From Vulcanimicrobiota bacterium (lineage in GTDB: Bacteria > Vulcanimicrobiota > Vulcanimicrobiia > Vulcanimicrobiales > Vulcanimicrobiaceae): a stretch of 64,000 nucleotides of DNA. The notes below the pieces were generated by a model. That model searched no databases. It was not told the DNA's origin and was given only the letters and a program-made list of their open reading frames with translations. Below are positions 4,909-42,512 of the stretch, piece after piece. Both the position numbers and the translations under genes were made by a program. The stretch covers positions 3,424,001 to 3,488,000 of the forward strand of contig OY970223.1 of the NCBI GenBank assembly GCA_963714015.1, in the 5' to 3' direction. Every line of letters begins with the position of its first letter. Position 1 is the stretch's first letter.

Positions 4909-6719
<1,811 letters not shown>

Positions 6720-8885: not shown

Positions 8886-8901
8886 GCCGCCCCGCCGGAC
8901 G

Positions 8902-9471: not shown

Positions 9472-9502
9472 GGCGGTGTTCCGAGTGGCTCTTGTGAGGG
9501 GT

Positions 9503-9588
9503 TGTTCACATATACATGTCCTTTTTCTATTGATTTGTTCATATATACATGTTATTTTAGAGCCCGTCAGGACACGTATACATGAACA
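9503..9588 (+). promoter_or_regulatory. sigma70-like promoter (TTGATT-N17-TATTTT) with three 17-bp operator-like repeats
   Basis: TGTTCACATATACATGT 9503-9519, TGTTCATATATACATGT 9536-9552 (exactly the spacer), inverted copy 9572-9588 over the ATG. Confidence 0.7.
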
Positions 9589-10644: not shown

Positions 10645-10819
10645 GCGCGTTCGTCACGTACACGTCGCTGCGAACCACGGCCGACCACAGCAACGAGAAC
10701 CAGGTTCGCAGATCTTTAATGACGGCCGCTTCGGCCGAGCAACATAAGCCGAAACATCGTCGGCAATCAAAACCTTTGTAGTACCCGTCGTTACCTGCGA
10801 CGTGCGCGGCGGGCGAAAC

Positions 10820-11551: not shown

Positions 11552-11681
11552 GCCAAAAGCAACGCCTTCGGTTCGAGGCTTGTGACGGTCGGCAGCGATC
11601 GCGTAAACGACCGGGAACGATACGTTGAGCGTGTAAAACGTTACCAGGCCGTGGGGTGCCGGCGCTTCCGGGAGGCTTTGA

Positions 11682-12527: not shown

Positions 12528-12542
12528 CCTCAATTCACGTCG

Positions 12543-13586: not shown

Positions 13587-13663
13587 TCTTCCCCCTTACG
13601 TTTACGCTTAATCTTACCAGCGCAGGGGCGGCCGTTATCTTAAAATATGGAGAGAGATCGTCC

Positions 13664-14674: not shown

Positions 14675-14687
14675 GTCAATCTCCTGC

Positions 14688-15665
14688 CTACGGCGATCCC
14701 ATAGCCGCCATGTACGGGTCCTGCGCTAAGCGCACGAATGCGGTTGAACCAGGGCCGGGATTGAGCGACCAGTTCGAACCATTGCTGACCCCGTCGTAAT
14801 ACATGAAACCTTTGACCGCCGGAAAATTCGATTGCAAAGCTGAGGCGACGCTTCCCAAGAACGTTGCCTGGCCGAAACTGAGGGTTCCGGTCTCGCCGAT
14901 GAGGATCGGTTTGTTGAAATGCGTCAGCGTGCCGTAGATCGGGCTGAAGAACGTCGGAAAATCCACCCCCTGCGTGTCGAACGCGTCCACCCCGACCCAA
15001 TCGACCTCCGAATCTCCCGGATAATAAGCCGAAGGATTGGAGCCTGCCGCCGAAACGTCCCAGACCCAGATGACGTTGGTCGCGCCGACCTGCGCGAAAA
15101 TCTGGCGAACGTGGGTCCACGCAGCTACGAATTCCTTCGCCGAGAAGGTGCCGTCGGAATTATCCGTGGCCGGATCGTAGCACGCGGTGCGGGGCTGCTT
15201 CGAATACGCGAAAATTGTCGACGACGGCAGATTCATATCCCAGAACCAGCGCATAAAGACCGCATGACCAAAAGCCTTGATTGCGGTCGCGCGCGTCGTT
15301 ATCAGGCCGTCGGCGGCGCCCGATGCAATCTGCGCGTCCGACATGCCGCAATCCCAAGAGTCTACGGAATAGCGCCCGTTCTCCAAATCACCCGTTTCGT
15401 TGAAGTGCGGGAAGAGCGTATTCCAGCTGTAATAGTGCATGTTCAGCGCAACGGGGCGTTCGATCAGCGTCTCGAGCGTCTTTATCGATCCGTTGCCGGG
15501 GTCCACGTACGCGCCGAAGTAAATGCTTCCGGTTCCGGGAGTCTGCGCACCTACCGGCGTCGGCGTCACGACGGGCGCCGGCGTACCCGGCTGACCTTCG
15601 CCGCATCCCGCAAGAACCAAAGCAAAAAGAGCCGCGACGGCAATCGTTGCGGCGCTACGGAACAT
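14688..15665 (-). CDS. GH26-like lipoprotein (acid/base Glu replaced by Asp)
   Basis: Lipobox LAGC; RWFWDMN, YYPGDSEVDWVGVD, KPILIGETG. Confidence 0.8.
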   Translation of the reverse strand: MFRSAATIAVAALFALVLAGCGEGQPGTPAPVVTPTPVGAQTPGTGSIYFGAYVDPGNGSIKTLETLIERPVALNMHYYSWNTLFPHFNETGDLENGRYSVDSWDCGMSDAQIASGAADGLITTRATAIKAFGHAVFMRWFWDMNLPSSTIFAYSKQPRTACYDPATDNSDGTFSAKEFVAAWTHVRQIFAQVGATNVIWVWDVSAAGSNPSAYYPGDSEVDWVGVDAFDTQGVDFPTFFSPIYGTLTHFNKPILIGETGTLSFGQATFLGSVASALQSNFPAVKGFMYYDGVSNGSNWSLNPGPGSTAFVRLAQDPYMAAMGSP

Positions 15666-16704
15666 ACTGCGCTCCCATGTACGGATCGTTGGCGAAAGCG
15701 CTGAATGCCGGGAATGCGCTGGTCGAAACGCGCCAGTCCTGGTTCACGGCCTGTATGTAGTTGATCCCGTCGTAGTAGACGAAGGCCTTTACAGCGGGAA
15801 AGCTCGCCTTCAGCGCCGGCACTGCGCCGCTGAAGAACGCAGGCTGCTGCGCCGCAAGTGCGCCGGTTTCCGCAATCATTATCGGTTTGTTCAACGCGGC
15901 CAACGTCGCGTATGCCGAACTGAACGTTCCGGAGAACGAGCCGCCGTTCACATCGTAAGCGTCCATGCCGACCCAGTCCACCCACTGACTGCCCGGATAA
16001 TACGGCATCGGCGGTTGCGCAGCCGGATTATTGCTGAACGTCCACACCCAAATCACGTTCGTCGCTCCGGCGTTTTGAAAGACGGTGTGCACGTGCTGCC
16101 AGGCCGCGATGAATTCCGAAGGGGAAAAGATGCCCTTGGGAAGATCCCCTTCGCTCGGATCCCAGCAAGGAGTGCGATCGAGCGCGGCATATCCTCCGGA
16201 CATCGCCGTATCGGGCAAGTTCGGATCCCACATGTACCGCAGAAAGACGGGCGCGCCGAAATTCTTCGCTTGAGCCGCCGCGATTTCAAGCTGCGCATCC
16301 CATTGTCCCGAAGCTATTTGCGCGTTGGGGTACTGACAGTTCCACGAGATCACGGGGACGCGAAAATGTTCGTAGTCGTCCAGAAGCTTGTTCCCGGAAA
16401 GACTTCCGTAAAAGGTAAGGTACTGCATATGCAGCGTCAGCAGCCGCCCGAGCTGCGCTTCGACGTCCGCGGCATCCGCGGGCGTGTTGCCGCCGAGCAA
16501 GCCCGTCGTGTTCACGTAAGCACCAAAGTAAATGGAGCCGGGCCGCGGCGTGAAAAGGCCGGCCACGGCGGGCTGCGCCATCGGCGTGCGCAATGCGGAA
16601 GGCGAAGCGCTGGCGAATGAGCTCGGAGCGGAGCCTTCGCCGCAGCCGGCGACGGCAAAGCAGAAAAGAGCGAGCGCCGCCAGTTGCAAGCGTTGGGAGG
16701 ACAC
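15655..16704 (-). CDS. GH26-like lipoprotein (acid/base Glu replaced by Asp)
   Basis: Lipobox VAGC; RYMWDPN, YYPGSQWVDWVGMDAYD, KPIMIAETG. Confidence 0.8.
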   Translation of the reverse strand: MSSQRLQLAALALFCFAVAGCGEGSAPSSFASASPSALRTPMAQPAVAGLFTPRPGSIYFGAYVNTTGLLGGNTPADAADVEAQLGRLLTLHMQYLTFYGSLSGNKLLDDYEHFRVPVISWNCQYPNAQIASGQWDAQLEIAAAQAKNFGAPVFLRYMWDPNLPDTAMSGGYAALDRTPCWDPSEGDLPKGIFSPSEFIAAWQHVHTVFQNAGATNVIWVWTFSNNPAAQPPMPYYPGSQWVDWVGMDAYDVNGGSFSGTFSSAYATLAALNKPIMIAETGALAAQQPAFFSGAVPALKASFPAVKAFVYYDGINYIQAVNQDWRVSTSAFPAFSAFANDPYMGAQYVP

Positions 16705-16764
16705 GCCCGACTCATTAGTCGAGGACCCCCCCTCACCCCGCTTGCCTTGCCCGGACCGCGAAAA

Positions 16765-16794
16765 GAAAAAGCCCGCATTGCTGCGGGCTTTTTC
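16765..16794. terminator. Intrinsic (bidirectional-type) terminator downstream of the PHA locus
   Basis: GAAAAAGCCCGCA-ttgc-TGCGGGCTTTTTC. Confidence 0.85.
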
Positions 16795-16813
16795 GCGCTG
16801 CCCTTAGTGGGCG

Positions 16814-17113
16814 TTAGTTTTTGGCGACGGTCTTCGCGAGATTCTTCGTGCTCTCGGTGAAGAACTCGGCAACCTGAATCGCATACTCTTTGCGCAGTTC
16901 GAGGAACTTGTTGGCGTAGTCGAAGCTCAGCTCGACGAACTTGGTCGGCGAAGGAAGCGTCTCGAGGGTCGGGAGCTTCTCGAACGTTGCGACCTCGGCG
17001 AAGAGTTCGCGGGCCTGCTCGAAGGCGGCGACGTTCGCGTCCTGAGCCTGCTTGACTGCTTTGAGCGTCTCTTCTTGAAAATTGCTTACGTACTGGTTGA
17101 AATCGGTGGCCAC
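16814..17113 (-). CDS. Putative phasin (PHA granule-associated amphipathic helical protein)
   Basis: 99 aa, Ala/Glu/Lys-rich and helical, CAGGAG RBS, last gene of the phaC locus, own promoter. Confidence 0.6.
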   Translation of the reverse strand: MATDFNQYVSNFQEETLKAVKQAQDANVAAFEQARELFAEVATFEKLPTLETLPSPTKFVELSFDYANKFLELRKEYAIQVAEFFTESTKNLAKTVAKN

Positions 17114-17150
17114 GGTGATTGTTACTCCTGCGGTTCTTGCTGCTGCTGTA

Positions 17151-17185
17151 TGCTAAGTATACTTAGCACACGCTGCATTTGTCAA
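17151..17185 (-). promoter_or_regulatory. sigma70 promoter TTGACA-N18-TATACT overlapped by a perfect 18-bp palindrome
   Basis: TGCTAAGTATACTTAGCA 17151-17168; -35 at 17180-17185, -10 at 17156-17161. Confidence 0.8.
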
Positions 17186-17535
17186 GTGCGACCCAAGAAC
17201 CCCCGGTAAATCCGGATCATCGTGTCCTTTTGGTCGGTCGTCAGGTTCCCGTCCAAGCGAATGGCCTGCTCGACGTCCCGGCCGGCGGGTTTGGCGTCTT
17301 CGTCTAAAAGGCCGGCTTGCGTGTACATCGTCTCCGCCGAAATCTGGAGCGCGCTGGCAATGTTTTTCAAAACGTCGGCCGAGGGTTTGTAGAGGCCCTT
17401 CTCCACCTGCCCGAGATACGGATTGGAGATCTTCGACATCTCCGCCAGCTGCCGCAGCGAGAGATTTGCGAGCTCCCGCTGGCTCCGGATGAACTCACCA
17501 AGCCTCTCCCACGCGCGATCGCGCTCAGAGCTCAT
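17182..17535 (-). CDS. XRE-family HTH regulator (Rv0474-like)
   Basis: LGEFIRSQRELANLSLRQLAEMSKISNPYLGQVEKGLYKPSADVL...ISAETMYTQAGLL. Confidence 0.85.
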   Translation of the reverse strand: MSSERDRAWERLGEFIRSQRELANLSLRQLAEMSKISNPYLGQVEKGLYKPSADVLKNIASALQISAETMYTQAGLLDEDAKPAGRDVEQAIRLDGNLTTDQKDTMIRIYRGFLGRT

Positions 17536-29383: not shown

Positions 29384-29424
29384 AAAAAAAGGCCGGAGAG
29401 GCGTCATTAGCGCCGCTCCGGCCT
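29384..29424 (-). terminator. Intrinsic terminator of the fimbrial-like operon
   Basis: Stem AGGCCGGAG...CTCCGGCCT followed on the minus strand by a U-tract. Confidence 0.7.
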
Positions 29425-29453
29425 CGCGTGCAGCAGCACGTCTCGGCTAACCG

Positions 29454-32400
29454 CTAGTTTTCGATCCAGGTGTAGGTCACAATCGACGTCTCGGGTGTAA
29501 CCGGTTCCGCTCCGACGCTGATCTTGCAGCTCTGGACGATATCGAACGGATTGCGCGTCGGATTGACGGTAGTGGGCGCGTGCGATAGCAGGATGCCGTT
29601 TCCGCTCGTCGGGATCACGGTGAACGAAGTCGTATCCCAGCCCAGGCCCATGGCCTGCGAAGAGTTGGCGGAGTCCACTTCGGTCAGCATCTCGTTCGTC
29701 GGGCTTCCGGTGCTGTTCACCGGGTTGTTGTCCGTCGAAACGTACAGGCCCCATCCGGCGGGGTTGCCGACGTCCGTGTAGACGCTTACCGTTGCGATAT
29801 CGCTGCCGGTTACTGATTGATTGTTGGCGACGCCGCCCATATTGATACTCGAGGCGGCGAAGGCACAGCCCGGACAATTGGGCGAGGGATGCGACGGATT
29901 CGCACCGGGTCCCGTGCCGGGATCGACGACGATGACCAAACTCGCGTTCGGAACAACCTCGACGTCCGTATCGTTGGGCCAAGCCGAGGCGGCGCTCACG
30001 CCGTTCGTCGTGCCGCCCGCCGCCAGGACGCTGAACGTCGCCGGGAAGTTGAAGATGTCGTTCACTTTGTACGGTGCTTGCGCGTTGAACGTGATCGTCA
30101 TCGAATCGCCCGGAGCAATATAGCAGCCGGCGCCGCCCGTAACGGTAATGTTTCCGTTCGACGTGGGTGCGCCCAGCGGCACGGGATTGGTGACGGTTGC
30201 AGTGCACGCCTTGCCGCCGGCTTGGCTGCCGTTGATCGTAACGGTTGCCGTCGGTGCTGCCTTCGGCGTAATTTGCCAATCGATACCCGTCGTGTCCGTA
30301 CCGGTGACGCCGTTGATGTCCTGGTACGGAATCGTCACTTGGACCTTCGTGAGGCTGTTGCACGGGATGCCGCCCGCGCAGTTGCCCGCGCTTGCACCGG
30401 TGTTCGTAATCGTGTACTGAAACGTGTTGCCGTACGTCGTGTCACTGTCCGCGCCGACCGTCGGTATGTTCGGCGCCGTCACCGGGACTATCGAGCCGCT
30501 ATAGGGATAGACTGCAGAGAATCCCGCCGTTGCACCGGTGGCGCTGATGCTCAGGGTGATCGTCTTGCCGTTGCCGTTCCAGCCGTCGCCGTTCGCGCCG
30601 TGCGTCCAGATGGTGCCGGTAATCGGACCCGCAACTCCGTTCGGAACGTTCAGAGCGCCCGTTGCATTGAACGTCTCACTGGGCTGCAGCGCGTGCGCCT
30701 GCTCGGTCGCCGTTGCGCACGCCGTCATATTGTTGCCGGTCGGCGGGTTCCAGGTTCCCGTGTTGCCGGGTTTCTGCGCCGCGCACAATCCGAACCAGTA
30801 ACGCGTGGTTCCCGCAACCGGCGTCGTCGATCCGAGATAGCTCCATCCGGCGGACGGCGCGCTGACTGCCGGATTGCTCCATGCCTCGTTGCTGGGAATA
30901 TCGACCGCGATGGCGTCGATCTCGTCCGGGAACGTTCCGCTGGTTGACGCATTAGAAAGCGCCACGGTTACGTTGTTGTCGGACGGCGAGCCCACCGAAT
31001 TCGGTGCGAACGATCCGGTCATCAGCGAGTTGTCGAGCGAATAAGAACCGATCGCCGTGCTGTCGATCGATTGCGGATTCGTCTGTCCGACGAACACGGT
31101 ATTGGTTCCGTCCGGAGCAATCGTGAAGATGTTGTTCGCTCCGCCGGTCTGCACCGTCTCGAGCGTAAAGTCCACGTAGGCGAAGGCCGACTCCGCACCC
31201 GGATTGAGGTCGAAGTACAGGTCCTGCGATGCGCCGGGTGCGATTCCGGCGTTACCGTTCCCCACTTGGAAGCAGTTCACGTCCGCCGGCAGACCGTTGG
31301 GACAATTGACGATGTTCCACTTCGTCGGCGAATTACCGTCGATGTTGATGGTCACGTTGCCGCCCGACATCGGCGGCGGTTCGCCCAGCTCGAATTCGGT
31401 GATATTCGCCGAACCGGCGGTGGACGTGTTCTTGATGTGGATATCCCAAACGTCGCTTCCGGCTGATGCCGAACCCTGCGGCTCGTTCTGCGCGTACATG
31501 CCCTGCATCGTACCTGCTACGACGCTGCGCGGCGTAAAGCCGTGAATGTCCGGACCCAGCGTGAGTCCGCCGTTTTGGTTGCCGACGAAGTAGACGTGTC
31601 CGGTCCCGGACCACGTGGTCGCGTTGCCGAAGTTGACGCTGACGTAATTCGTCGCCTGTGTCTGATTGGCGGCCGACCAGTCGGCGCCGTCGACGGGTAG
31701 CACCGTCGTCGTTCCATTACAGCCCGTCTTACAGTTGGTGTCGGCGACCGGAACGCTCCATGTGATGTTGGGGATCGTGACGTACGTGTTGTTCGGCGCC
31801 AAGCTGTTGCCGGCAGTGGTCGGAAGGCCCAGCACGTTGCAGCCGGCCGCGTTGCCGGCTCCCGCGCACTTTACCGTAAACGTCCAAGAGACGCCGCTCG
31901 AATCGACGACCGTCTGCGTTTGGCAGTTTGCTCCGCACGAAGAGCTGCCCGCGCCAAGCGCCATCGTGACGCCGGACGTGCCGGTGTTGAAGTCGATCTC
32001 GGCGATCGCATCCGCGTTCTGCGTATTCCAATTGACGCTGCCGCCGTCGTTTTGGAACTCCAAACCCGACGTTGCGGTTCCGCCTGCGCTGAGTGTAATT
32101 GCCGTACCGTTGGGATTGGTAAATATCGTCGAGACGTTGTAGCCCACGATCTGAAAAGCTTTGGATGCCGCGACGTCCCCGGCGTTCGGCGCCGTTCCGG
32201 CGGCCCCGGTGATGCCGGCCTTGTCGTAGAGCGTCAGGGTATAAGCGTCGTTGGGATAATTCGTGGGCGTCTGATTGTTCGTGAACGTCCAGTTGACGTT
32301 GGTCGTCGTTCCGGCCAGATTATTTACGTCGTTGCTGTAGACGACCAATCCGTTCGGATCGCTGATGATCTCGCGGTAGCTGTGCCCGTTCGTGAGACCG

Positions 32401-33530
32401 GTTACCTTCGCGGCAAAACCGGAGTCCGAGTTTTCGGTCGTCGAGTCGAAGGCAAATATGGCGGAAGGCGTCGGTGCAGCCGGTGCCGGGGACGGCGCTG
32501 CCGTACCGCTCGCACCCGCTACGCCGGTCATGCTTATCGCGCCCGATGCGCCGTTCTTGACGACGGAAAACTGAATTTGCGCGACGCGCTGATTTGCGGT
32601 CGTGTCGTAAAGCACGAGCGAATACGTGCCCGTAGCCTCCGCCGCCGGAATCGTCCAGGAGCCGTTGAAGGTCCCGAGCGCCGGCAGACGCGCAACGGCG
32701 GAGTCCGGATTACACAGCCCTGCCGGCGGGTTGCCGCCCGGCGAGGGGAACAGGAAAACGCAGGTCGGCGAGGTCGACGTCGATTCGATGTAATACGCGT
32801 AGTCGTCGGCGCCTTGCAAGCCGCTGTCGCTGAAGTACACCGTCTGTCCGCCGGTGAAATTCGTCTCCGGCACGGTGTCGTACTGATCGGAGAACGTCTG
32901 CAGCGTATTCGTGTTTCCGACCTGAATGTACGCGACGTCGATCCAGAAACTTCCCGTCTTGTCGTATGTCCCGAGCACATACGTGCCGTCGACGTTCAGC
33001 GTTTGAATGTTGCCGCCGTCGCCGTTCTTGACCAAGTAAGCCGCATAGGCATTGAACGCCGTCGGGTCGTTCGGCGGCAGATAGACGTCTTCGACGGAGT
33101 CGTTACCGTTGAGCGCGCCGTTGCCGAACGTCGACCACCATTGGATCGTACAAGGATTGCCGAAGATGTAGTTTCCGTATTCCAGACAGCCCGTGTTGAT
33201 GTTGACGGTACTGCCGGTCGCGGACATCGGATGCCGGTGTCCGGAAAGAATGTCCGCTGCGCTGAAGGTGTTGGCGCGCGTTTGCTTAGGCAGCGGTGCG
33301 AGTTGCCAACGCGGAAGCCGCGCGACCACCGTTCGCTGCATGCGCACCGCACTGGGAACGTTCGTTCCCGAAAGGCCTTGGAGCGGGGCAAGGGTCGCAA
33401 CCGGCCTTACGGGGGCGGGACTAGGATGCGCGATAACGTGCAGCGTGGGGCCGACGGCGGCCACAGCGACTGCGCCGCCGACGAGCGCCAGGAATCCCGC
33501 GATGAGCGCTGCGCGCACGTTACTGAACAT
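29454..33530 (-). CDS. Large secreted beta-rich adhesin (1358 aa) with C-terminal pilin/WxL-like domain
   Basis: Signal MFSNVRAALIAG; Gly/Thr/Asn-rich Ig-like repeats with Cys pairs; C-terminal INMGG...GWGLYVS...TSIVTYTWIEN; TGATG coupling to the upstream gene. Confidence 0.7.
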   Translation of the reverse strand: MFSNVRAALIAGFLALVGGAVAVAAVGPTLHVIAHPSPAPVRPVATLAPLQGLSGTNVPSAVRMQRTVVARLPRWQLAPLPKQTRANTFSAADILSGHRHPMSATGSTVNINTGCLEYGNYIFGNPCTIQWWSTFGNGALNGNDSVEDVYLPPNDPTAFNAYAAYLVKNGDGGNIQTLNVDGTYVLGTYDKTGSFWIDVAYIQVGNTNTLQTFSDQYDTVPETNFTGGQTVYFSDSGLQGADDYAYYIESTSTSPTCVFLFPSPGGNPPAGLCNPDSAVARLPALGTFNGSWTIPAAEATGTYSLVLYDTTANQRVAQIQFSVVKNGASGAISMTGVAGASGTAAPSPAPAAPTPSAIFAFDSTTENSDSGFAAKVTGLTNGHSYREIISDPNGLVVYSNDVNNLAGTTTNVNWTFTNNQTPTNYPNDAYTLTLYDKAGITGAAGTAPNAGDVAASKAFQIVGYNVSTIFTNPNGTAITLSAGGTATSGLEFQNDGGSVNWNTQNADAIAEIDFNTGTSGVTMALGAGSSSCGANCQTQTVVDSSGVSWTFTVKCAGAGNAAGCNVLGLPTTAGNSLAPNNTYVTIPNITWSVPVADTNCKTGCNGTTTVLPVDGADWSAANQTQATNYVSVNFGNATTWSGTGHVYFVGNQNGGLTLGPDIHGFTPRSVVAGTMQGMYAQNEPQGSASAGSDVWDIHIKNTSTAGSANITEFELGEPPPMSGGNVTINIDGNSPTKWNIVNCPNGLPADVNCFQVGNGNAGIAPGASQDLYFDLNPGAESAFAYVDFTLETVQTGGANNIFTIAPDGTNTVFVGQTNPQSIDSTAIGSYSLDNSLMTGSFAPNSVGSPSDNNVTVALSNASTSGTFPDEIDAIAVDIPSNEAWSNPAVSAPSAGWSYLGSTTPVAGTTRYWFGLCAAQKPGNTGTWNPPTGNNMTACATATEQAHALQPSETFNATGALNVPNGVAGPITGTIWTHGANGDGWNGNGKTITLSISATGATAGFSAVYPYSGSIVPVTAPNIPTVGADSDTTYGNTFQYTITNTGASAGNCAGGIPCNSLTKVQVTIPYQDINGVTGTDTTGIDWQITPKAAPTATVTINGSQAGGKACTATVTNPVPLGAPTSNGNITVTGGAGCYIAPGDSMTITFNAQAPYKVNDIFNFPATFSVLAAGGTTNGVSAASAWPNDTDVEVVPNASLVIVVDPGTGPGANPSHPSPNCPGCAFAASSINMGGVANNQSVTGSDIATVSVYTDVGNPAGWGLYVSTDNNPVNSTGSPTNEMLTEVDSANSSQAMGLGWDTTSFTVIPTSGNGILLSHAPTTVNPTRNPFDIVQSCKISVGAEPVTPETSIVTYTWIEN

Positions 33531-34240
33531 CACCAGTACACCGTGTAAGTAGCGGTCGTGCTGTAAGATCCGGTCGGAACGGAGGCGGGAATCACGATGC
33601 TGAGATCGACGCAGTAGGTCTTCATGCCGCCGGCGGTCGCGACGTTCTGCCACGCCGTAGGATATACGGTGAAGGGCGAAGCCGTCGGCTGCGGCGTCGC
33701 GCCGGCGTAATTATCGCGGCTCACGTTCTTCCCGGGAAAGCTCGTTGCCGACGAAGACGGATTCTGCGCTAGCCCGTCCTTCAGAGTCCATGAGGTCTGC
33801 GCGCTGTCGACAGTGACTTGATACGCGCACGACTGCTTGAGCGTCGTGCCCGCGGTGCCGTTCAGCGTGACGATCGGGTTGTTGGTATAGAGCAGGGTCC
33901 CCATTGGATTGGGGGAGACTTCCGCTTCGACTTTGAGCGCCGACTGCGTCTGCTGCGCAACGAGCACGCTGCCGCGTTCGAATGCGTTGCCGTCGACGTA
34001 GCCGGCCGACCCCTTCGCGCGCAGCGCGATGTGCGCGGCGATCTGCGGAGCCGATACGGGCGGCCCTGCGTCTGCCGGAGCGGGCGCCTTTGCGACGCCG
34101 GTGATGTTCATGAGAATCGTGACTTGGATCTGGTCGCGCTGAGTCTGCCCGACGCCGGCTTGCGAATGACCGCCGAACGCCGCGAAGATCGCTGCCACCG
34201 CCAGTGCTGCGAAAGCTCCTCGCTTGAGCGGCCGGTTCAC
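33530..34240 (-). CDS. Putative minor fimbrial subunit
   Basis: Signal peptide; SWTLKD; C-terminal VIPASVPTGSYSTTATYTVYW; GTGA coupling. Confidence 0.65.
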   Translation of the reverse strand: MNRPLKRGAFAALAVAAIFAAFGGHSQAGVGQTQRDQIQVTILMNITGVAKAPAPADAGPPVSAPQIAAHIALRAKGSAGYVDGNAFERGSVLVAQQTQSALKVEAEVSPNPMGTLLYTNNPIVTLNGTAGTTLKQSCAYQVTVDSAQTSWTLKDGLAQNPSSSATSFPGKNVSRDNYAGATPQPTASPFTVYPTAWQNVATAGGMKTYCVDLSIVIPASVPTGSYSTTATYTVYW

Positions 34241-34896
34241 GACGCCACCACCGTGTAGACGATCCAAACGTAGTAATTCACGGTGCCGGACGTAGCGGCC
34301 GCATTGGGAACTTTGAGCTCGTAATCCTGATAGATGTCGCCGCTCTCCGAAGACGAGCTGTCGATCGGAGCCGGATACGTCCCGTAGGTGATCGTCGGCG
34401 GAACTCCGGATTCGGGCTGCGCGGGATTGACCGCTCCACCCGTGACGTTAAACGGAAAACCTGCGCTGAAACCGGTATTGCCGTCGCCGCTGGCGACGGA
34501 GGGGACCCAATATAATGTTTGATTCAGATTCATGGTGTTGGCGCCGCCGTCCGAAAAGTTTGCGGCGCCTTCGCCGTAGAGGTTGAATCCCGAGCTGTCG
34601 TTGCTGCTGACGTTCACGTGAGCGGCGTACTTGTAGAGGTAGTCCACGCCGGCTTCGATCGCGCCGAAGTCGACCGCGCAACTGTTCGCGCACGATCCGG
34701 GTCCGGGCGCGGGCGTCGGCTGGGTGCCGAGCGCGGCCTTAACTGTTCCGTAACCTGCGTTATAGTTGGGCGTCAGCGTCATCGTGATAATCGCGTTGGT
34801 ATACCACGCAACTTTCACGCTACCGGCTGCCGAGGCCGGCGCGATTGTCAAAACCGCAGCCAGCGCCACCACACAGGAGCCAATCCAGGCTCGCAA
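34237..34896 (-). CDS. Putative minor fimbrial subunit (spore coat U/Csu-like)
   Basis: AAGGAG RBS plus TTG; signal (ASA); CANSCAVDFGAI; C-terminal DYELKVP...IVYTVVAS. Confidence 0.65.
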   Translation of the reverse strand: MRAWIGSCVVALAAVLTIAPASAAGSVKVAWYTNAIITMTLTPNYNAGYGTVKAALGTQPTPAPGPGSCANSCAVDFGAIEAGVDYLYKYAAHVNVSSNDSSGFNLYGEGAANFSDGGANTMNLNQTLYWVPSVASGDGNTGFSAGFPFNVTGGAVNPAQPESGVPPTITYGTYPAPIDSSSSESGDIYQDYELKVPNAAATSGTVNYYVWIVYTVVAS

Positions 34897-34935
34897 CGCG
34901 CACACTCCTTTGTTAGTTGTACTGCTTGGTCTGAA

Positions 34936-35739
34936 CTAGTGCGTTTCGAAAGCGACCTCGCCGCCCGTCATCGATTTCCCGCCGTAATCCACCATCGCGA
35001 TTACTTGATACTTTCCGGGAGGCAGCGGTTTGCCCGAAACCTCGATCAGACGTTCTCCGCCGCGTTCGACCAACTCGTTGTTCGGAAGCGAGATCCGATC
35101 GACCGTTGCGCCATCCTTCTGGACCTCCAGTTGTCCGTTCAGATAGACGTGCATGTTGCCGGTATTCTTGAAAACGACCCGGTAGTTCTCGTCGCTCGGT
35201 TCGCTCACCACGTTCATCTTGGCAATCGCACCATCGATTTTTTCGGTGCCTGCGATCGTCAAGTAAATCTTGGTGGCGATTCGAGCCGAGAACGCTACCG
35301 CTCCCGCCCGGCGAACTGCTCGCGTTTGAAAGAAGACGATGCCCGAATACTCACCGCTGAGCGTTTTGTCGTCCGGCAAGTGCAGACTGAGCTGAACTTG
35401 CTGCGACGTTCCCGCCGGAAGGTCGAACTCGCGAGGGTTGATGAAGGCCCAACGCATCAGCGAGTTAAGTCGGCTTCCGACTGCCGCGATCTTGTATCCG
35501 CCGCTTCGATCGACCGTGAAGTCGACCATCGAGGCTTGAATGTGGGTCGCCGCCCCCGATTGATTCGACACGGTAACCGGTATGTTGTAACTCGTACCGG
35601 TAGGCGCCGAAAGATCCAGTTTTGCGGGCGAGACCGAGATTCCTAAGACACCGGCAGTTTGAGCAGGTGCTCCGGATCCCATAAGAAGTGTCGCAAACAG
35701 TAACGCTATCGCTGAGATAATGACGCGAGAATGCTTCAT
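34936..35739 (-). CDS. Putative periplasmic fimbrial chaperone (PapD/DUF916-like two Ig domains)
   Basis: Signal; ISVSPAKLDL...VTVSN...WAFINPREFDLPAGTSQQV...GEYSGIVFF; second domain FKNTGNMH...LPPGKY...VDYG. Confidence 0.75.
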   Translation of the reverse strand: MKHSRVIISAIALLFATLLMGSGAPAQTAGVLGISVSPAKLDLSAPTGTSYNIPVTVSNQSGAATHIQASMVDFTVDRSGGYKIAAVGSRLNSLMRWAFINPREFDLPAGTSQQVQLSLHLPDDKTLSGEYSGIVFFQTRAVRRAGAVAFSARIATKIYLTIAGTEKIDGAIAKMNVVSEPSDENYRVVFKNTGNMHVYLNGQLEVQKDGATVDRISLPNNELVERGGERLIEVSGKPLPPGKYQVIAMVDYGGKSMTGGEVAFETH

Positions 35740-35804
35740 ATGAGATCGTTTCGGTCGCAGGGACACCCGACCCCGCAGCCTTTCGAGCTTTCCTTCGTTC
35801 AGAT

Positions 35805-36554
35805 TTAGTTTGTAACGACCGTGTAAGTAACGGTTCCGGAGTCGTTGGCCGTCTTGCCGGCGTTGGCCGGAAGCACGACCGCGTAATCCTCGCCGAAGTA
35901 TGCCGGGTTGGTCGTGTTGTCGCTCGTGTCGAACACAGTCGTGGCCGCACCGCCGGGAACGGTTTGCGCGTTCACGCCGGAACCGCCGTACTGCAGACCG
36001 GCACACGTCGCTCCCGACCAGTTCGCAGCGGTCGTGTCCGTGGTGTCGGTGGCTTTAGCAGCCGTGTAGTTCGAAGAGGAGACGCCCGCTGCAGCCCATG
36101 CAACCGGCGCGTTCGATTTGATCGCGATGCCGCAGATCGCCGCTCCGGCTTGAGCCGGTGCAGCCGTCAGCTGCTCTTGAACCACGACGCCGGAGGTGTC
36201 GTTCGTATTGATTTGTGCTTCCGCCGCGTTGAGACCGACGCAAACGGTCGGGGCCGACGCGCTCGGCGTGATGCCGCCGAAGTCCAGCGTCAAGGCCTGC
36301 GTGCCGTTGCCGGCGCCGCCCGCGCCGGGGCTCACGTTGCAGGTGCCGCCGCCGGGAACGGTGAGCGGCGCAAGGTTGTCGCTGCCGCCGGCGCCGGCGT
36401 TGTTGTAGTTACCTTCGAGAACCATCGTCGCGACTGCGGAGATGTTCCATTGAATTTTCACGGTGCCCGTTGCTGCCGCCGCTGCGGATGCGGGGGCCGG
36501 CAGACAGGCGGAGATTGCCACGAGTGCCGTTGCGAGCGTTAAGAGCTTTTTCAC
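35805..36554 (-). CDS. Putative major fimbrial subunit
   Basis: Ala/Thr/Gly-rich; signal; TCNV...LTLDFGGITP; C-terminal EDYAVVLP...GTVTYTVVTN; own promoter upstream and stem-loop downstream. Confidence 0.7.
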   Translation of the reverse strand: MKKLLTLATALVAISACLPAPASAAAAATGTVKIQWNISAVATMVLEGNYNNAGAGGSDNLAPLTVPGGGTCNVSPGAGGAGNGTQALTLDFGGITPSASAPTVCVGLNAAEAQINTNDTSGVVVQEQLTAAPAQAGAAICGIAIKSNAPVAWAAAGVSSSNYTAAKATDTTDTTAANWSGATCAGLQYGGSGVNAQTVPGGAATTVFDTSDNTTNPAYFGEDYAVVLPANAGKTANDSGTVTYTVVTN

Positions 36555-36557
36555 TTT

Positions 36558-36651
36558 TGAGATCCTTTCACAATGCGCAATTTAAATGCCGTCCATGGCA
36601 AATGCGAAAAGCGTTACCTCAACGTTATCGGCACCTTCGATAGCCTAGTTA
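36558..36651 (-). promoter_or_regulatory. sigma28-type promoter TAAC-N15-GCCGATAA plus CsrA-like sites in the 5' UTR
   Basis: -35 at 36648-36651, -10 at 36625-36632; hairpin TGCC-ATGGAC-GGCA 36587-36600; AAGGA in the RBS. Confidence 0.7.
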
Positions 36652-39600
36652 GTAAGAGACCGTGGTAAGGCTGTTCAGATATCTTTACAGTGAATACGAA
36701 TATATGCGGCGCGTTCGGCTTGGGTAAAGTCGTCGTCTGACCGTCCTGCCAAACGATGCGATCGCCTTCGTGCGCGGCGGCCAGAAAGCGCGCGTGCACC
36801 ACGACGTATTGGCCTTTGATGGGATGCTCCGGGGATGAGCTCGAAAGTATCCGGCCGGCGCATCGGGATCGACCACCAGCGTAGCGGACGCCGACAAAAG
36901 TCGTTTGCCGTGAATCGTGGCCGCTATCTTGTACGATCCGCTTTTCGCTGCCGCGGGAACGTCGATCTCACCTTCCCAACGCGACGTTAAGCGAGAGTAA
37001 TTCAGCGGATGCGTTTCGCCGAATGCAATTGCGGCGACCGACGTCGCTTCCTCGCCGGCCGTCACCGAAACGAGCGTTTCACCGCCGGGCGGCAGGCGAT
37101 CGTGCGCGATCTCCATCATCGCCGCTTCCGAGTCTTCGGTGGCTTTGAACGAGAACACGATGTTCTTCTGCTCCTTGCCGATCGTGAAGAGCAGGCCGTC
37201 ATGGCGTTCACCGGGCTCCAGCTCGACGCTCACAGGCGGCGATTCGTTGCCCGTTCCGTCCGGAAGGGTTTCCGGATCGACGTTGACGTTGTACGTTCCG
37301 GCCGGGAGATCGTCGATGAGGAAGCTGCCGTCGTCGTTCGTGATCACCGCGTGTTCGCCCGGCTCGGCGACGACGTAAGCGTTGGTGACGCCTTGATTTG
37401 CGAGATCTTTGCCCAGAGCGGGATCGTACACGAGTTTTCCGGCAATGGACCCGAGCGCGCTCGCGGTGAAATCAACGGGCGTGTATTGACCGTTTTGCAC
37501 GATCACGTCCTTGACTGCATCCGATGACGGAAATGACGCGTCCGCAGGCAGCGAGGCCATGTCGATAGCGACGGTGTGCTTTCCGGGCGCGAGGCGGCCG
37601 AACCCGAATGTGCCGAGCGCAGTCGTCGTTACCGTCGTTATCTGATCCAGTTTGATCTGCGCACCCGAAATGGGGTAGAGATCGCCGCTCGGCGTGCGGC
37701 CCATCACGTGCCCTTCGATTCCGCCGAAACTGCCGATTTGGAAGAGCACCTGCGCGCTCTGACCGCCTTGCACGTCGATTGGCGCATACGGTTGATCCGC
37801 CGTCACACCGCGCGGAAGGGACGCCGTCTCGATTCGGACTTCGTGGTGCCCGGGCGAAACCAAGTTGAATTGAAAATGGCCGAGCAGATCGGTTCGTTGC
37901 ACTTGCGACTCGTCGAGCACCACTTCGACGTTTGAGATGCCGTTCGAAGAAGCTGCGGATCCGACGAAGTTGGTGGCTCCGGCGACGCTGACGACACTGC
38001 CCGCGATCGTCGCCGGAAGATGCGGATTGGGCCTTCCGCTGACGGCGCCGGTTCCGAACGAGAAGGGCGCATCTACCTCCAAATTGATGATGCGCGAATG
38101 TCCGTCGACCGAAGGGTTGATCGGATCGTGCGTGAACTGTTCGCCGACGTTTAATCCGAGCGTCAGGGCCGGGGATATTGCGCGGCTGAAATTTACCAGC
38201 GGCGTAATCTGCAGCGCATCGCTCGCGGCCGTGCGCGTGTGCGTAAACGACGTACCGAACGAGACCGTATTGCGCAGTCCGATCTGCGTCGAGGTGTTGA
38301 TGCTGTTCGAAAGGATCACGGACCCGGCGCCCGACGACGTGCTGTTCAGCACCTGGCCGTTGTACGTAAACGCGAGTCTGCCGAGCTGCCGCTGCAGTGA
38401 GACGCCGTACTGCGAGTTCGATCCGGGCGCAAGGCCGGTCAGCCGCTGCAGCTGCCCCTGAAACAGCGCGTTCGTGCCGAACAATTCGGTCTGAAGTTGA
38501 CCCGAGACTCCGCCGGTCCACTGCGCCGGCGCACCTGCTTGCAACTGATGCTCGTCTTGCAGAGCCAAGCTGTAATCGACAGTGCCGCGCGAGCCCGTAA
38601 ACGTTAAAGAATCGCGGCGGGTCAGGATTTGGTCGGCGCCCTCTCCCGCTTTGTCCATCGATCCGTCGAAGGAGAGTGAGGAATTCGAAAGCGTCTTTCG
38701 GAACGACGTGTCGGCAAAGTCGTCGGCACTGACCACGCCGCCGCCGAGCGCCACGAAGCCGTCGCTTTGATGCCGCAGCGTCAAGCTGCCGTACGTGAGC
38801 GCCGATCCGAAGTCGCTGCGGAACTGGTAAGCCGAACCGGATGCCGGAGCGTCCGCGCCGGCGTTCTTCCGATTTTCGAACGCTGCCTCGAGCGTTTCGT
38901 CCAGGGGCCCCGACGCATGCGAAAAACCGAAAAGCGCCAAGCCTTCGCGCTCCGGCGTGGACTCCGACGCGGCTTGCATATAGCCGGCCTCGTAGATCGT
39001 CGAGCCGGTCGTCTTGCGGGCGCGAATACCGGCGAGCCGCGCCGTAAGCCCGTCCTCAATCGCAATCGGGCCTTGGAACGTCGTCAGATCGCCGCCGGCA
39101 AACGGTACGATGACTCCGAATCCCGACAGCGTGGAGCCGAGCGGGATCTGTCCGAGCAGTCCCAGCGGCTGCGCCTGATAGGTCAGGCCGACCTTCGGCG
39201 TGGCATACGTGATCTGAGGAAAGCCCAATCGAGTGGGACCCGAGCTCGTCACACCGAGAGGGACGTTCAACTGCGTCATCGTCGAGCCGGTCCGCCGGGA
39301 AAGCTGCAGCAGGATGCCGGCATTGCCTTCAGTTTGACTCTGACCGGTGGCGCCCGTGTCGGACCCCGCGAAACTGCTGCTCAGCATGTGCTCTCCCAGC
39401 GCGAGGTTGCCGCTCATTGCGAAGGTCAACGGCCCGCCCCGCGAGGCAGCCTTCTCTGAAGGCTTGGGAGTAGACGGAAGAATGGGGGCGGGCGTGGAGC
39501 CCGCGCTTGCAGCGATGGGCGCAGCCGGGAGCGCCTGCGCCGCAATCTGGGCGAGCGCCTGAATCGGGGCCGCAATTGCGGCGGGGATGTCGGAGCGAAG

Positions 39601-39690
39601 CCCGGCCGCTGTAAGCGAGCCGGCCATCATCGTCAATCCGGTAAAGCGCAGCCCGCGGGCGAGGCGCCGTTGGAAGTCCCGTCCCCTCAT
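36614..39690 (-). CDS. Putative atypical usher-like outer-membrane protein with C-terminal SdrD-B/carboxypeptidase-regulatory domains (indels near 36830-36845)
   Basis: Long amphipathic beta-strand region, then TDLLGHFQF..VSPGHHEVRIETASLP, TALGTFGFGRLAPGKHTVAIDMASLP, TNDDGSFLIDDLPAGTYNVNVDPETLP; true C-terminus in ORF 36614-36802. Confidence 0.65.
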
Positions 39691-39823: not shown

Positions 39824-41221
39824 ATGGATGTGCTCGGAGGCGCGAATCAGGTACAGCTAAACCTGTTTCGCACCCAAATGGATGAACGGACGCAGATTAA
39901 CGCGCTGGCCAGCGGCCTACGCGTTAATAATGCTTCTGACGATCCTTCCGGCTACGCCATCGCCGAAACCATCCAGTCCAAGGTCAGCGGACTGCAGCAA
40001 GGCGTGCAAAACGTCCAGGAAACCGGCAACCTGCTCAATGTGGCGGACTCGACGCTGAGCAACGTACAGCTCATCCTTCAGCGCGTCCACTCACTCGTCG
40101 TCGAAGCGGCTTCCACGCTCAACTCGCCCCAGCAGCTGCAATCGGTCCAGGACGAGATCGACGAGCTGCTTCAGGAAGTCAACAAGATTTCTTCCGGGAC
40201 CAAGTTCAACGGCATCAGCCTTCTGGACGGCTCCCTGAGCGACGCGCCGGCACAGCCCGGCTACTTTGAAATCATCAATCCGGACAGCAATCCGGACGGC
40301 TCGGTTCCTAGTCAGGACGTCTCCGATTCGCAAAACCCGGGACAAGCGCAGCCCGGTCCGCTCATTTTTCAGGATCCGAACTACCCGATGTTCGACACGA
40401 ACGCGCACTACGTCTCGGGTTACACCGAGATGCAGGTGGTCAGCTACAGCGACAATCCGACGCCCCCCGGCGGATCGCCGCTGGGAGTGCCCGGCGTCGT
40501 GATCAAATTCACGCAGTTCAGCACCGATCCCAACTTCGGCGGCACGAACGGCGCGCAAGAACAGGTTTCCTACGGCGCATACGCGGTCGACGCCGGACAG
40601 GTCGGACCGGGCTCGCCGCCTGGACTGAACATCAATAACGCGAGCGGTTCGGCGCCGATGCTGACGCCGGATCTCGCGAATCTTTCGGCGCAAGACGTCG
40701 GTGTCGCAATGGCGGTCGAAACGTTCTATGGGGCGCCGGCCGGCACGGGGACGCCGCTGACCGTCAACACCGGCGGATCGGAAGGCGATCAAATCTCCAT
40801 CAGTCTGCCGAACGTGAACACGAGCGCGCTCGACATCGCCGGCATCAGCGTTTTGCAGCCGGTCTACGTCGACGGAAACAACAACGTCATCGGAACCGGC
40901 GACAACACGCAGGCCGTCGACGACGCCGAGGCGCGCGTGAACAATGCAATCAACTTGATCGATCAGGCCCTCGCGCAGGTGGGAGCGCAAAACGTCGCCA
41001 TGCAGGAAGAAGCGGACGGCGCTTCGCAGCAGATCGTCAACCAGGTCGCCAGCGAGAGCGCGATCCGCGACGACGACGTGGCGCAATCCACGACGCAGCT
41101 CACCAAAGATCAGGTACTCTCCCAAGTTGGAACGAGCGTGCTCGCACAGATGCAGAGCAGCGCGAAATTGGTCATTCGGCTCGTGACGGGATCGGCGATC
41201 GGCGGAGCGGGCCAAATCTAA
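39824..41221 (+). CDS. Divergent flagellin-like protein
   Basis: LASGLRVNNASDDPSGYAIA, LLNVADSTL, TKFNGISLLDG; C-terminal SAIRDDDVA...VLSQVGTSVLAQ. Confidence 0.88.
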   Translation: MDVLGGANQVQLNLFRTQMDERTQINALASGLRVNNASDDPSGYAIAETIQSKVSGLQQGVQNVQETGNLLNVADSTLSNVQLILQRVHSLVVEAASTLNSPQQLQSVQDEIDELLQEVNKISSGTKFNGISLLDGSLSDAPAQPGYFEIINPDSNPDGSVPSQDVSDSQNPGQAQPGPLIFQDPNYPMFDTNAHYVSGYTEMQVVSYSDNPTPPGGSPLGVPGVVIKFTQFSTDPNFGGTNGAQEQVSYGAYAVDAGQVGPGSPPGLNINNASGSAPMLTPDLANLSAQDVGVAMAVETFYGAPAGTGTPLTVNTGGSEGDQISISLPNVNTSALDIAGISVLQPVYVDGNNNVIGTGDNTQAVDDAEARVNNAINLIDQALAQVGAQNVAMQEEADGASQQIVNQVASESAIRDDDVAQSTTQLTKDQVLSQVGTSVLAQMQSSAKLVIRLVTGSAIGGAGQI

Positions 41222-41297: not shown

Positions 41298-42512
41298 ATG
41301 AATGCGTCTGCAATCCCCAAACTGCCGTTATTACCGGTTTTTATTGCCGTCGCTGCGATCGCCGGCTGTCACGGCGCAGGCCCGCCGTCCGGCGGCACGT
41401 CCACCATACCGCAGACCGACGCGCGGCACGCCGCGGTACCGGCGCGCGTGGGACTCGGAAAAGTGCTGAGCGCGAAAGACGGCGGCCAAATCTACGGATT
41501 CGACATCGATCGGAGCGGCAGCGACGGCGTTCTGGCCTCCGCCACGTCAAGCAGCAGGCCGAAGGTCTCCGTGCAGACGTTCGATGAGGATTCGGGCCGG
41601 ATCGTCAGCTTGGTCAAGGTCGACACCGCGGACGGCAGCTCGTACGGGGCGGACGGCATCTTCAATAGCGACACCGCGCTGCTCACGCACTACGTCATAC
41701 CGAAAGGCGGCATCTACGCTAAACGATTTTACCAAGTCATGGATCCGGTGACCGGAAACTCGATCACCGGTAAGTGGACGCCGCCGATCGAGGACGTCGA
41801 CGTGCAGCAGGCCGGCGTGAATCAATCGACGCCGCAGAGCGTACTCTTCGCCATCGAACTGCGCAATCAGGATGCGCCGGATCTCTTCGTCACCGATATC
41901 GCGGCAAACACCTTCGGCAAAGTCATCCATCTCGATCCGAATCTGTTCGGGTTAGCCGATGCCCCGCAGCTGGCGCAATTTATCTCGAAGAACGAAGCCG
42001 TCATGGCGCTTTCGCCGGACGGCGGCGCGGCCGGAGGAAAGCCTCCGCTCAATTTTCTCTTCGATCTTCAGACCGGCAAATCGACGCAGTTCGGCGGTTA
42101 CAACAACGGCCCGTTTCACGCCGGAGACGTCAACGGCGCAGCCGTCGACCCCAACACCGGCATAGAAGCGACCGACACCGAGCTCAATGCACAGGTCGAA
42201 TTCTACGACGACAACAAGAAATTGGGGGTTATCGCCGTGCAACTGCCGTGCACGAACGACGCCGACCAACTGAACAGCGGTTCCGGCATCGCCGTGGACC
42301 CCGTGCACAAGTTGTTCCTCGTCACCGAAGAGTACTACGCGTGCGGCTCCGGAAGCGCGATCGCGGTATACGACGAAACCGGCGCGTTGAAGGAAACGAT
42401 TACCGGATTTTCGTTCTACGTGGGAGAGCCCGCGCCGGTGCTCAATCCGTCCAAGCGCATGGGCTGGGTATTCGGCCCGAAGGTGAGCCAGCTGCAGCAG
42501 TTCTTCTACTGA
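41298..42512 (+). CDS. Secreted lipoprotein, probable beta-propeller
   Basis: Lipobox IAGC; GAAVDPNTG, GIAVDPVHKLFLV, IAVYDETG. Confidence 0.6.
   Translation: MNASAIPKLPLLPVFIAVAAIAGCHGAGPPSGGTSTIPQTDARHAAVPARVGLGKVLSAKDGGQIYGFDIDRSGSDGVLASATSSSRPKVSVQTFDEDSGRIVSLVKVDTADGSSYGADGIFNSDTALLTHYVIPKGGIYAKRFYQVMDPVTGNSITGKWTPPIEDVDVQQAGVNQSTPQSVLFAIELRNQDAPDLFVTDIAANTFGKVIHLDPNLFGLADAPQLAQFISKNEAVMALSPDGGAAGGKPPLNFLFDLQTGKSTQFGGYNNGPFHAGDVNGAAVDPNTGIEATDTELNAQVEFYDDNKKLGVIAVQLPCTNDADQLNSGSGIAVDPVHKLFLVTEEYYACGSGSAIAVYDETGALKETITGFSFYVGEPAPVLNPSKRMGWVFGPKVSQLQQFFY

Follow-up and report, generated by a model that had tools for sequence, protein, structure and literature searches.

Within a 64,000-nucleotide stretch of the Vulcanimicrobiota bacterium contig OY970223.1 (positions 3,424,001 to 3,488,000 of the forward strand; this whole stretch is called the window below), six co-oriented genes on the minus strand at window positions 29454-39690 are likely, on the models described here, to encode a diderm pilus of the chaperone-usher type that would assemble by donor-strand exchange, that would be related to the Elr/WxL pilus, and whose protein families lie outside the described chaperone-usher pili. 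The reading is built on the operon and its conservation, the predicted folds of its products and the geometry of a modelled chaperone-subunit complex, each of which was observed computationally. The operon is carried by a closed genome of 3,562,638 bases, and its six open reading frames (ORFs) overlap their neighbours or stand at most 130 nucleotides from them. An initial annotation of the window, made from the letters alone, had described six co-oriented secreted proteins here, and this was borne out: the ORFs lie as it gave them, and the N-termini of all six, read by eye, resemble signal peptides in having a basic and then a hydrophobic stretch. The features of the operon are as follows (aa, amino acids; AF2, AlphaFold2; Ig, immunoglobulin):

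36614..39690, minus strand: usher-like outer-membrane protein, including the tail in the shifted frame (the ORF as assembled, 36685-39690, encodes 1001 aa)
38053..39429, minus strand: predicted 24-strand transmembrane beta-barrel of the usher-like protein, residues 88-546 (AF2, Foldseek, VIA)
37141..38013, minus strand: three CarboxypepD_reg/SdrD_B-like (transthyretin-like) beta-sandwich domains of the usher-like protein, residues 560-850, presumed periplasmic (Pfam)
36614..37119, minus strand: two further C-terminal beta-sandwich domains of the usher-like protein, the second in the shifted frame (AF2; matched in a Deinococcus protein)
35805..36554, minus strand: pilin-like subunit A (a homolog of subunit B), 249 aa, four conserved Cys
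36435..36467, minus strand: N-terminal extension of subunit A (GTVKIQWNISA, residues 30-40), candidate donor strand
34936..35739, minus strand: soluble two-domain chaperone-like protein, a distant DUF916/WxLIP_PGBD relative with no membrane anchor (267 aa from the ATG; residues are numbered from one codon upstream of it, giving 268 aa)
35278..35298, minus strand: strand V149-I155 of the chaperone, which in the model runs parallel to subunit B's last strand
34237..34905, minus strand: pilin-like subunit B, 222 aa, Ig-like beta-sandwich (AF2, fold searches)
34789..34824, minus strand: conserved N-terminal extension of subunit B (GSVKVAWYTNAI, residues 28-39), not a strand of the monomer model
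34243..34269, minus strand: C-terminal strand of subunit B, residues 213-221, in contact with the chaperone strand in the model
33530..34267, minus strand: subunit C, 245 aa (start codon uncertain), its C-terminal half related to subunit B
29454..33530, minus strand: large secreted protein, presumed adhesin, 1358 aa
29457..30083, minus strand: C-terminal domain of the adhesin, a candidate pilin domain with a Cys...INMG motif and IVTYTWI as its terminal strand
29385..29426, minus strand: terminator of the operon, a GC-rich hairpin and U-run directly 3' of the adhesin stop codon

When residues 28-268 of the chaperone were modelled together with residues 27-222 of subunit B, the three runs reached ipSAE values of 0.72, 0.71 and 0.71, while the highest of three controls scored 0.00, and they agreed in at least 85% of their contacts, with a predicted local distance difference test score (pLDDT) of 81 for the partner. 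The lowest-error contacts set chaperone residues 149-154 in register with subunit B residues 213-218, the two strands running parallel, and chaperone residue 151 also contacted the first strand of the subunit at residues 44 and 46; the chaperone strand thus lies, parallel to the subunit's last strand, between that strand and the first one, which is the geometry of donor-strand complementation as seen in chaperone-usher pili and in ElrE-ElrD. In 12 orthologues, F151, S152, R154, A156, K158 and Y160 of the chaperone are each either invariant or conserved to at least 90%. The initial annotation had named subunits folding as complete Ig domains, with no acceptor groove, as an outcome that would speak against it; in our models the N-terminal strand of subunit B remains outside the fold and the chaperone strand occupies the space between the subunit's first strand and its last.

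Modelled by itself with AF2, subunit B gives a confident structure (pLDDT 89.7, predicted template modelling score (pTM) 0.78) in which the first strand begins at residue 40 and residues 28-39, which are conserved, stay outside the fold. We infer donor-strand exchange because of this conserved N-terminal extension outside the fold. The extensions GTVKIQWNISA of subunit A and GSVKVAWYTNA of subunit B, pointed out previously as a shared N-terminal strand, do come after the signal peptides, and their Trp is conserved: W36 of subunit A is invariant and V32 and N37 are at least 90% conserved in 45 sequences, and the Trp of subunit B is at least 90% conserved in 58 sequences. By hhalign, subunits A and B are homologs (probability 99.3%, E-value 1.8e-20), so the motifs that they share are more than chance. 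The relationship of subunit C to subunit B is confined to the C-terminal half (probability 93.7%, E-value 2e-7), and A and C have just the last strand in common. Four of the six proteins have the alternating C-termini that had been reported for them (GTVTYTVVTN, VWIVYTVVAS, TATYTVYW and SIVTYTWIEN), and the Cys...[LVI][DN][FM]G motif was found, as claimed, in subunit A (C72...LDFG), subunit B (C72..VDFG) and the last domain of the adhesin (C1219...INMG), and again at C604 of the adhesin. As for the cysteines, C72, C105, C141 and C184 of subunit A are invariant in the 45 sequences, a pattern that suggests two disulfide bonds formed in the periplasm; the pair C72 and C76 of subunit B is not conserved.

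In fold searches with subunit B, the weak top rows from Foldseek were mostly to subunits of donor-strand-exchange fibres (FimG, AbpA, TLP-1, TasA, Caf1, CsuA/B and CfaB), and VIA-align placed subunit B on TLP-1a (Z 8.2) and TLP-1b (Z 8.0) over 151 residues, with root-mean-square deviations of 5.5 and 5.2 Å, respectively. In a wide search of 48,161 chains TLP-1b alone had Z of 8 or more; the next matches were to N-terminal domains of GH123 (about 7), the PapD-like domain of CEP192 (7.0) and Enterococcus faecium WxLIP (6.8), followed by CfaB, a Sulfolobus thread and FimG (6.0-6.4). The best chain listed for PDB entry 9i25 in the subunit B search was the WxLIP chain C (Z 6.0), and this entry was not among the best 50 of the wide search. 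By language-model features WxL was the annotated family nearest to subunit B (0.94), which we treat as a lead only. Sequence searches placed the subunits in no described family: none of the 58 subunit B sequences matched any pilus family, and the genome holds no match to the WxL domain, nor do the six proteins contain a dual WxL motif. The likeness to Csu/spore coat U pilins proposed in the initial annotation was not supported, the subunits matching no Pfam family, Spore Coat Protein U (the Csu pilin family) included. A word-indexed search with the subunit B alignment returned 407 proteins; none of the 120 listed has a Pfam domain, and every name given among them was 'hypothetical protein', from Eremiobacterota-type metagenome-assembled genomes (MAGs).

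The chaperone-like protein consists of two beta-sandwich domains with no hydrophobic C-terminal tail, and judged by its sequence it is a distant relative of the WxLIP/DUF916 proteins and no member of them by the curated rule. PF06030 (DUF916) was matched by 15 of 16 members of its family at E-values of 1 or less (best 2.1e-7), and no protein of the genome matched PF06030 at 1e-3 or less. The annotators' comparison of the locus with WxL plus DUF916 clusters therefore stands for the chaperone, but not for the subunits, which lack any WxL domain match. A profile search of 1.84 billion cluster representatives in public data with the chaperone found 14,673 with E-values of 1e-3 or less, 6,151 of 1e-10 or less and 273 of 1e-30 or less, and a hydrophobic C-terminal segment was present in only two of the best 150. 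Among 93 distant representatives, 35 matched PF06030 at 1e-3 or less (11 of them above the cut-off), two weakly matched PF11797 (WxLIP_HBD) and one matched PF00345 (PapD_N). Neither PF11797 nor PF00345 was matched by the window chaperone or its 16 relatives, and PF00345 had no match in the genome. One representative, P0077, matched both PapD_N (1.5e-4; 22.1 bits, the cut-off being 23) and WxLIP_PGBD (4.1e-4), and it is possibly a sequence bridge between the PapD and WxLIP chaperone families. The best 150 representatives (P0005-P0154) also include 53 longer than 450 aa, mostly with two or more stretches matching the profile and many of these at both N- and C-terminal positions, which suggests tandemly duplicated chaperones; a few (P0046, P0150) carry C-terminal TPR repeats. 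Of our control genomes, Thermotoga maritima and Lactococcus lactis have PF06030 matches above the cut-off, and from the former it follows that the domain is not limited to Bacillota, even by the curated threshold.

The AF2 model of the 1001-aa protein (pLDDT 75.3, pTM 0.46) has 24 long strands between residues 88 and 546, followed by beta-sandwich domains. Its barrel block is predicted with pLDDT mostly 80-92 over residues 160-540 and lower before this; residues 1-87 form a signal-like helix and then an Ala/Pro-rich stretch (disordered over residues 32-83), and the sole insertion in the barrel is about 40 residues long (149-190). The ushers of chaperone-usher pili have 24 barrel strands. Foldseek with the model gave FimD (3.3e-15) and PapC (5.6e-12) as the best matches, and chains of these two ushers made up 13 of the first 14 matches listed (3.3e-15 to 2.9e-9), the other being the Bacillus anthracis TIE protein; the isolated PapC pore was matched at 5.9e-7. 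VIA aligned 369 residues with FimD (Z 13.1), residues 78-547 of the model on 131-656 of the chain. Pfam searches identified PF13620 in three stretches (1.1e-17) and PF17210 (8.7e-10). The initial annotation, which had described an usher of this length bearing three SdrD_B-like domains, is thus supported by Pfam, AF2 and Foldseek, but the end of its ORF is shortened by a frameshift; and the beta-barrel on which it had staked the usher is found in our model, with 24 strands and with FimD and PapC as its best Foldseek matches.

By sequence the barrel protein stands apart from solved ushers, none of which was found with the usher profile. The window protein had no match to the Pfam Usher family (PF00577) at an E-value of 10 or less, the genome held none, and PF00577 was not among the 25 families listed (of 48) for 37 orthologues, one of which matched Porin_4 (3.8e-5). 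A word-indexed search with the barrel region returned four proteins only, all close relatives. The three CarboxypepD_reg/SdrD_B-like domains are the sole Pfam domains of the six proteins apart from weak rows elsewhere, NCBIfam gave nothing near its cut-offs for any of the six, and sequence searches of the PDB with profiles of the subunits, chaperone and usher produced chance-level rows only. Full-length matches of all the genes to a known chaperone-usher family had been named beforehand as an outcome contrary to a new pilus class; in the Pfam, NCBIfam and genome searches no gene matched such a family. The genome encodes an Omp85/BamA homolog (69.6 bits, the cut-off being 24), and an outer membrane is therefore to be expected.

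BLASTP searches found all six genes in 33 of 66 related loci and five of them in a further 19; the remaining 14 loci are mostly short and ended by contig ends. The 33 complete sets occur in three gene orders (23, 6 and 4 loci), and the usher gene is placed after subunit C in two further loci. That the gene set is kept while its order changes argues for a functional unit. The chaperone has an ortholog (E-value of 1e-30 or less) in 110 of 401 sampled genomes of the phylum, or in 105 of 396 when five genomes flagged as unpublished, all positive, are set aside; by family, it was found in 105 of 296 genomes of the window's own family, in four of five of a second family of the same order, and, with this query, in none of 99 genomes of 19 other families. 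Averaged over alignment columns, identity reaches 46-62% in the chaperone, 48% in subunit B, 42% in the usher, 33% in subunit A and 30% in the last domain of the adhesin, a ranking that fits periplasmic machinery with more variable exposed parts. Five of the loci (L052, L082, L091, L092 and L093) come from MAGs labelled Acidiferrales, Acidoferrum, Dormiibacterota or Acidobacteria, and their proteins are 45-54% identical to those of Eremiobacterota; these loci reflect either mislabelled binning or gene transfer.

More distant counterparts were found by tblastn with the chaperone against plasmids, which identified two Deinococcus plasmids (28.5% and 24.2% identity, with E-values of 6e-11 and 3e-6). 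In both, the neighbours of the chaperone-like gene encode small hypothetical proteins, and the gene two places downstream of it encodes a protein of 1090 or 1018 aa. The C-terminal half of the 1090-aa protein matched the usher profile over 350 columns (probability 95.2%, E-value 2.5e-8), and its N-terminal part does not align with that profile. These loci lie at 7888-17339 of NZ_CP140100.1 and 6870-15231 of CP058536.1.

Of the three systems with which the locus can best be compared, the Elr/WxL pilus shares its chaperone family. According to a preprint on that pilus (bioRxiv 10.64898/2026.10.17.759780), a DUF916 chaperone complements the pilin with a parallel strand (ElrE-ElrD), the chaperone is membrane-anchored in 96.7% of cases, the fibre is sortase-anchored, there is no usher, and operons were found in Bacillota only (48 of 4,698 genera) with Pfam gathering thresholds; the window locus would fail this survey because its components fall below those thresholds. 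An earlier bioinformatic paper puts more than 91% of WxL sequences in Firmicutes. The window locus has in common with Elr of Enterococcus faecalis and the WxL-WxLIP Csc clusters of Bacillota a chaperone of the DUF916/WxLIP_PGBD superfamily with a parallel complementing strand (modelled here), small pilins with a conserved N-terminal extension, an arrangement in one operon, and a large adhesin whose C-terminal part bears the shared strand and Cys motif (at motif level here). It differs in that its chaperone is soluble, with neither a transmembrane helix nor PF11797, its pilins have no PF13731 match or dual WxL motif, and it encodes an outer-membrane barrel, of which Elr has none according to the preprint, the host here being a diderm of the Eremiobacterota. 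An LP.[TSA]G motif is present in none of the six proteins, and sortase genes were not searched for.

With the chaperone-usher pili (Fim, Pap, CFA/I, Csu/CupE) the locus would share a periplasmic two-domain chaperone and a 24-strand barrel with beta-sandwich domains, both predicted here, together with an N-terminal extension on the subunits and a large adhesin. In contrast to these pili it shows no membership of the Usher, PapD_N or Pfam pilin families and no recognisable plug or N-terminal domain, and the C-terminal module of its barrel protein comprises five beta-sandwich domains, three of them CarboxypepD_reg-like. Typical chaperone-usher adhesins have two domains and are far smaller than the 1358 aa of the protein here. 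The Pam pilus of CPR bacteria is described in its preprint (bioRxiv 10.64898/2026.03.03.709456) as a donor-strand-exchange fibre of Ig-like pilins with PapD-like chaperones in the same operon; its two-domain pilins are reported to be exclusive to CPR, and PamR anchors the fibre to the inner membrane. Ig-like pilins and an operon-encoded chaperone are common to both, as known here from genes and models, but the Pam chaperones are membrane-anchored and, according to that preprint, no pore spans the envelope, whereas the window locus has a soluble chaperone and a barrel gene.

The structural match of subunit B to TLP-1, its best and over nearly the full length of both proteins, is to fibrils that were recovered from pond water by CryoSeek. 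According to that report (PMC11494351), the orphan fibrils TLP-1a and TLP-1b form a tubule by donor-strand exchange with protomer n+4 as the donor; the secreted Ig-like protomer has an N-terminal strand that is disordered in the monomer prediction and completes the fold of its neighbour. There is, however, no sequence likeness between TLP-1 and subunit B, and the Z values are in the common range. TasA fibres and the AbpA bundling pili of archaea, which are likewise donor-strand-exchange structures of Ig-like or jelly-roll subunits, are among the weak fold matches, but with Z of only 4.9-5.9.

If the operon does encode such a pilus, its assembly might proceed as follows. All six proteins would be exported by Sec, and the soluble chaperone would capture each subunit in the periplasm, its strand V149-I155 entering the groove between the subunit's first and last strands (donor-strand complementation). 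The chaperone-subunit complexes would then dock on the periplasmic beta-sandwich domains of the 24-strand barrel; the large adhesin probably goes first, and the 1358-aa protein would probably be the tip of the fibre. The extension of each incoming subunit (G-[ST]-V-K-[IV]-x-W) would displace the chaperone strand by donor-strand exchange, and the growing fibre would thread out through the barrel. Polymerisation, subunit order, export through the barrel and adhesion are the parts of this scheme that we infer.

Several results weigh against a donor-strand-exchange pilus of this kind. Subunit B has no match in the PDB by Foldseek at an E-value of 1e-3 or less, and its best Z values of 8.0-8.2 are, according to the tool, typical for models without a clear match; as such values are common they are consistent with a pilin fold and are no proof of one. 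None of the 58 subunit B sequences matched the WxL domain (PF13731) at an E-value of 10 or less, and the window chaperone itself matched PF06030 at 0.068 (13.6 bits), below the Pfam cut-off of 27.3. By VIA the barrel is not usher-specific: MtrB came first (Z 13.7), with FimD at 13.1-11.6, PapC at 11.8, and porins, VDAC and TonB-dependent receptors at 10-12, and neither a plug domain nor an N-terminal docking domain is evident in the AF2 model. The mark used by the complex tool is reached by 116 of 157 solved complexes and by two of 215 mismatched pairs, a calibration that holds only roughly here since alignments of our own making were used, and because the PDB contains complexes of chaperones with pilins and of WxLIP with WxL, a similar type of fold may account for the pass. 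The last 230 residues of the adhesin aligned with subunits B and A at hhalign probabilities of 7% and 20%, respectively, so that its terminal domain, the candidate pilin domain, is linked to the subunits by the motif and terminal strand, homology not being supported at profile level; WxL was seen in six of 30 matches to this domain by language-model features, again a lead only. Lastly, the usher-like ORF is frameshifted in this assembly near 36837.

One alternative is a static surface-display complex with no fibre, in which the chaperone stays bound as a structural partner while the small proteins and the adhesin are exported or anchored by the barrel as single copies. The weak pilin fold matches leave room for it, as does the modelling, which covers the chaperone-subunit pair alone, and WxL clusters were first read as a 'platform', according to the Elr preprint (bioRxiv 10.64898/2026.10.17.759780). 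We nevertheless regard such a complex as unlikely: a conserved N-terminal extension with an invariant Trp outside the fold would be difficult to account for if no partner offered a groove, in both known systems the primed state has a parallel complementing strand, and an ordered fibre agrees with three paralogous subunits alongside a large protein that ends in the same strand. Another explanation is that the locus is a divergent but true member of the classical chaperone-usher systems, its WxLIP likeness coming solely from a shared PapD-like fold. In favour of this are the first place of FimD and PapC in the Foldseek search with the whole usher-like protein, the strand count of 24 (that of ushers), the PapD_N match of P0077 (1.5e-4) beside its match to PF06030, and a PapD_N-positive Deinococcus radiodurans among the control genomes. 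Against it, PF00577 and PF00345 find nothing in the genome, the usher-like protein has no Usher match even at E-values up to 10, the chaperone family matches PF06030 in 35 of 93 cases and PapD_N in one, solved ushers and chaperones show no sequence match, and VIA finds the barrel as close to MtrB as to FimD; classical membership is for us an improbable explanation.

It is possible, too, to read the barrel as an anchor or porin with periplasmic domains, the subunits being assembled by the chaperone alone and either kept in the periplasm or released by another exit, a reading that would agree with the generic fold likeness found by VIA, with the plug and N-terminal docking domain not seen in the model, and with the Elr and Pam pili, which assemble without a pore according to their preprints. 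We think this distinctly improbable, given that 48 of the 52 related loci holding five or six genes contain the barrel gene, which keeps its place through three rearrangements of order, that on the two Deinococcus plasmids the chaperone-like gene is again two genes upstream of a gene for about 1000-1090 aa, and that a diderm cell needs a route across the outer membrane. The frameshift raises the further question of whether the locus is decaying in this genome. The reading frame of the usher changes near 36837, where apparently extra bases at 36837 and 36840 shift it, and the conserved last ~60 residues continue in the other frame to a stop at 36614; this shifted tail has no stop codons and agrees with the ortholog consensus, and the other five genes of the operon are intact. 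Both extra bases are absent from an independent soil-metagenome contig, in which the frame is thereby restored, as is a third such base at 35777, which lies between the genes for subunit A and the chaperone; this support is weak, consisting of one contig each at a depth of 2.5-3.2 (2.5 for the contig lacking both bases) from the one DNA run, which covers 13 of 30 bins with short contigs. The frameshift is probably an assembly error or a strain difference, and decay of the locus seems to us very unlikely. The pilus built by donor-strand exchange and exported through the barrel thus remains the explanation that we favour.

A broader version of this pilus reading can be put forward only tentatively, and we are more inclined to doubt than to accept it: the operon would represent a widespread, as yet undescribed diderm branch of donor-strand-exchange systems that is sister or ancestor to the WxL/Elr and possibly the Pam pili, the barrel would be a true homolog of FimD/PapC, so that chaperone-usher, WxL and Pam systems share one origin, monoderms would have lost the usher and tethered the chaperone, and TLP-1-type fibrils would be products of such operons. 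The two 2026 preprints on the Elr/WxL and Pam pili extend donor-strand-exchange pili to bacteria without an outer membrane, and both stress anchored chaperones and the lack of an usher; the window locus, from a soil phylum about which little is known, pairs a soluble relative of the Elr chaperone family with a barrel of usher shape. Our literature searches found nothing beyond the Elr preprint on DUF916 with an usher, nothing on chaperone-usher systems in Eremiobacterota and, on new classes of donor-strand exchange, a single general review; a WxL-like chaperone combined with an usher-shaped outer-membrane pore appears to be a combination not yet described in print. If the pilus is real, a common origin of chaperone-usher and WxL pili would become directly testable, a large set of 'hypothetical proteins' would gain a function, candidate assembly genes would be at hand for orphan environmental fibrils, and an adhesion organelle would be indicated for Eremiobacterota.

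A more distant cluster in a class-level relative (L027, G034:C19, positions 4848-16019) encodes two chaperone-like proteins (22-24% identity), two small proteins without a Pfam match, two proteins rich in Big_2 (1056 and 864 aa) and, in a product of 719 aa, a stretch resembling CarboxypepD_reg. The chaperone and this one stretch are all that tied it to the operon; it may represent another type of such a system.

At the level of transcription, the ATG of the adhesin gene and the stop codon of subunit C overlap by one base, and the 81-nucleotide stretch with the terminator has a folding energy of -41.7 kcal/mol (z -4.48), one of 200 shuffles being as stable. Hairpins in the three internal intergenic regions were no better than shuffles (z -0.32, -0.88 and +0.71), and a promoter scan gave two sites where 2.2 are expected by chance. 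No RNA data set was listed as containing the stretch. On its 5' side, across a 133-nucleotide intergenic region from the usher gene, the operon is bordered by a divergent flagellin gene (39824-41221, plus strand; Flagellin_N 4.5e-26, Flagellin_C 2.1e-7), which is followed at 41298-42512 by a gene for a 404-aa protein without a Pfam match, and the neighbour on its 3' side is a convergent MatE gene.

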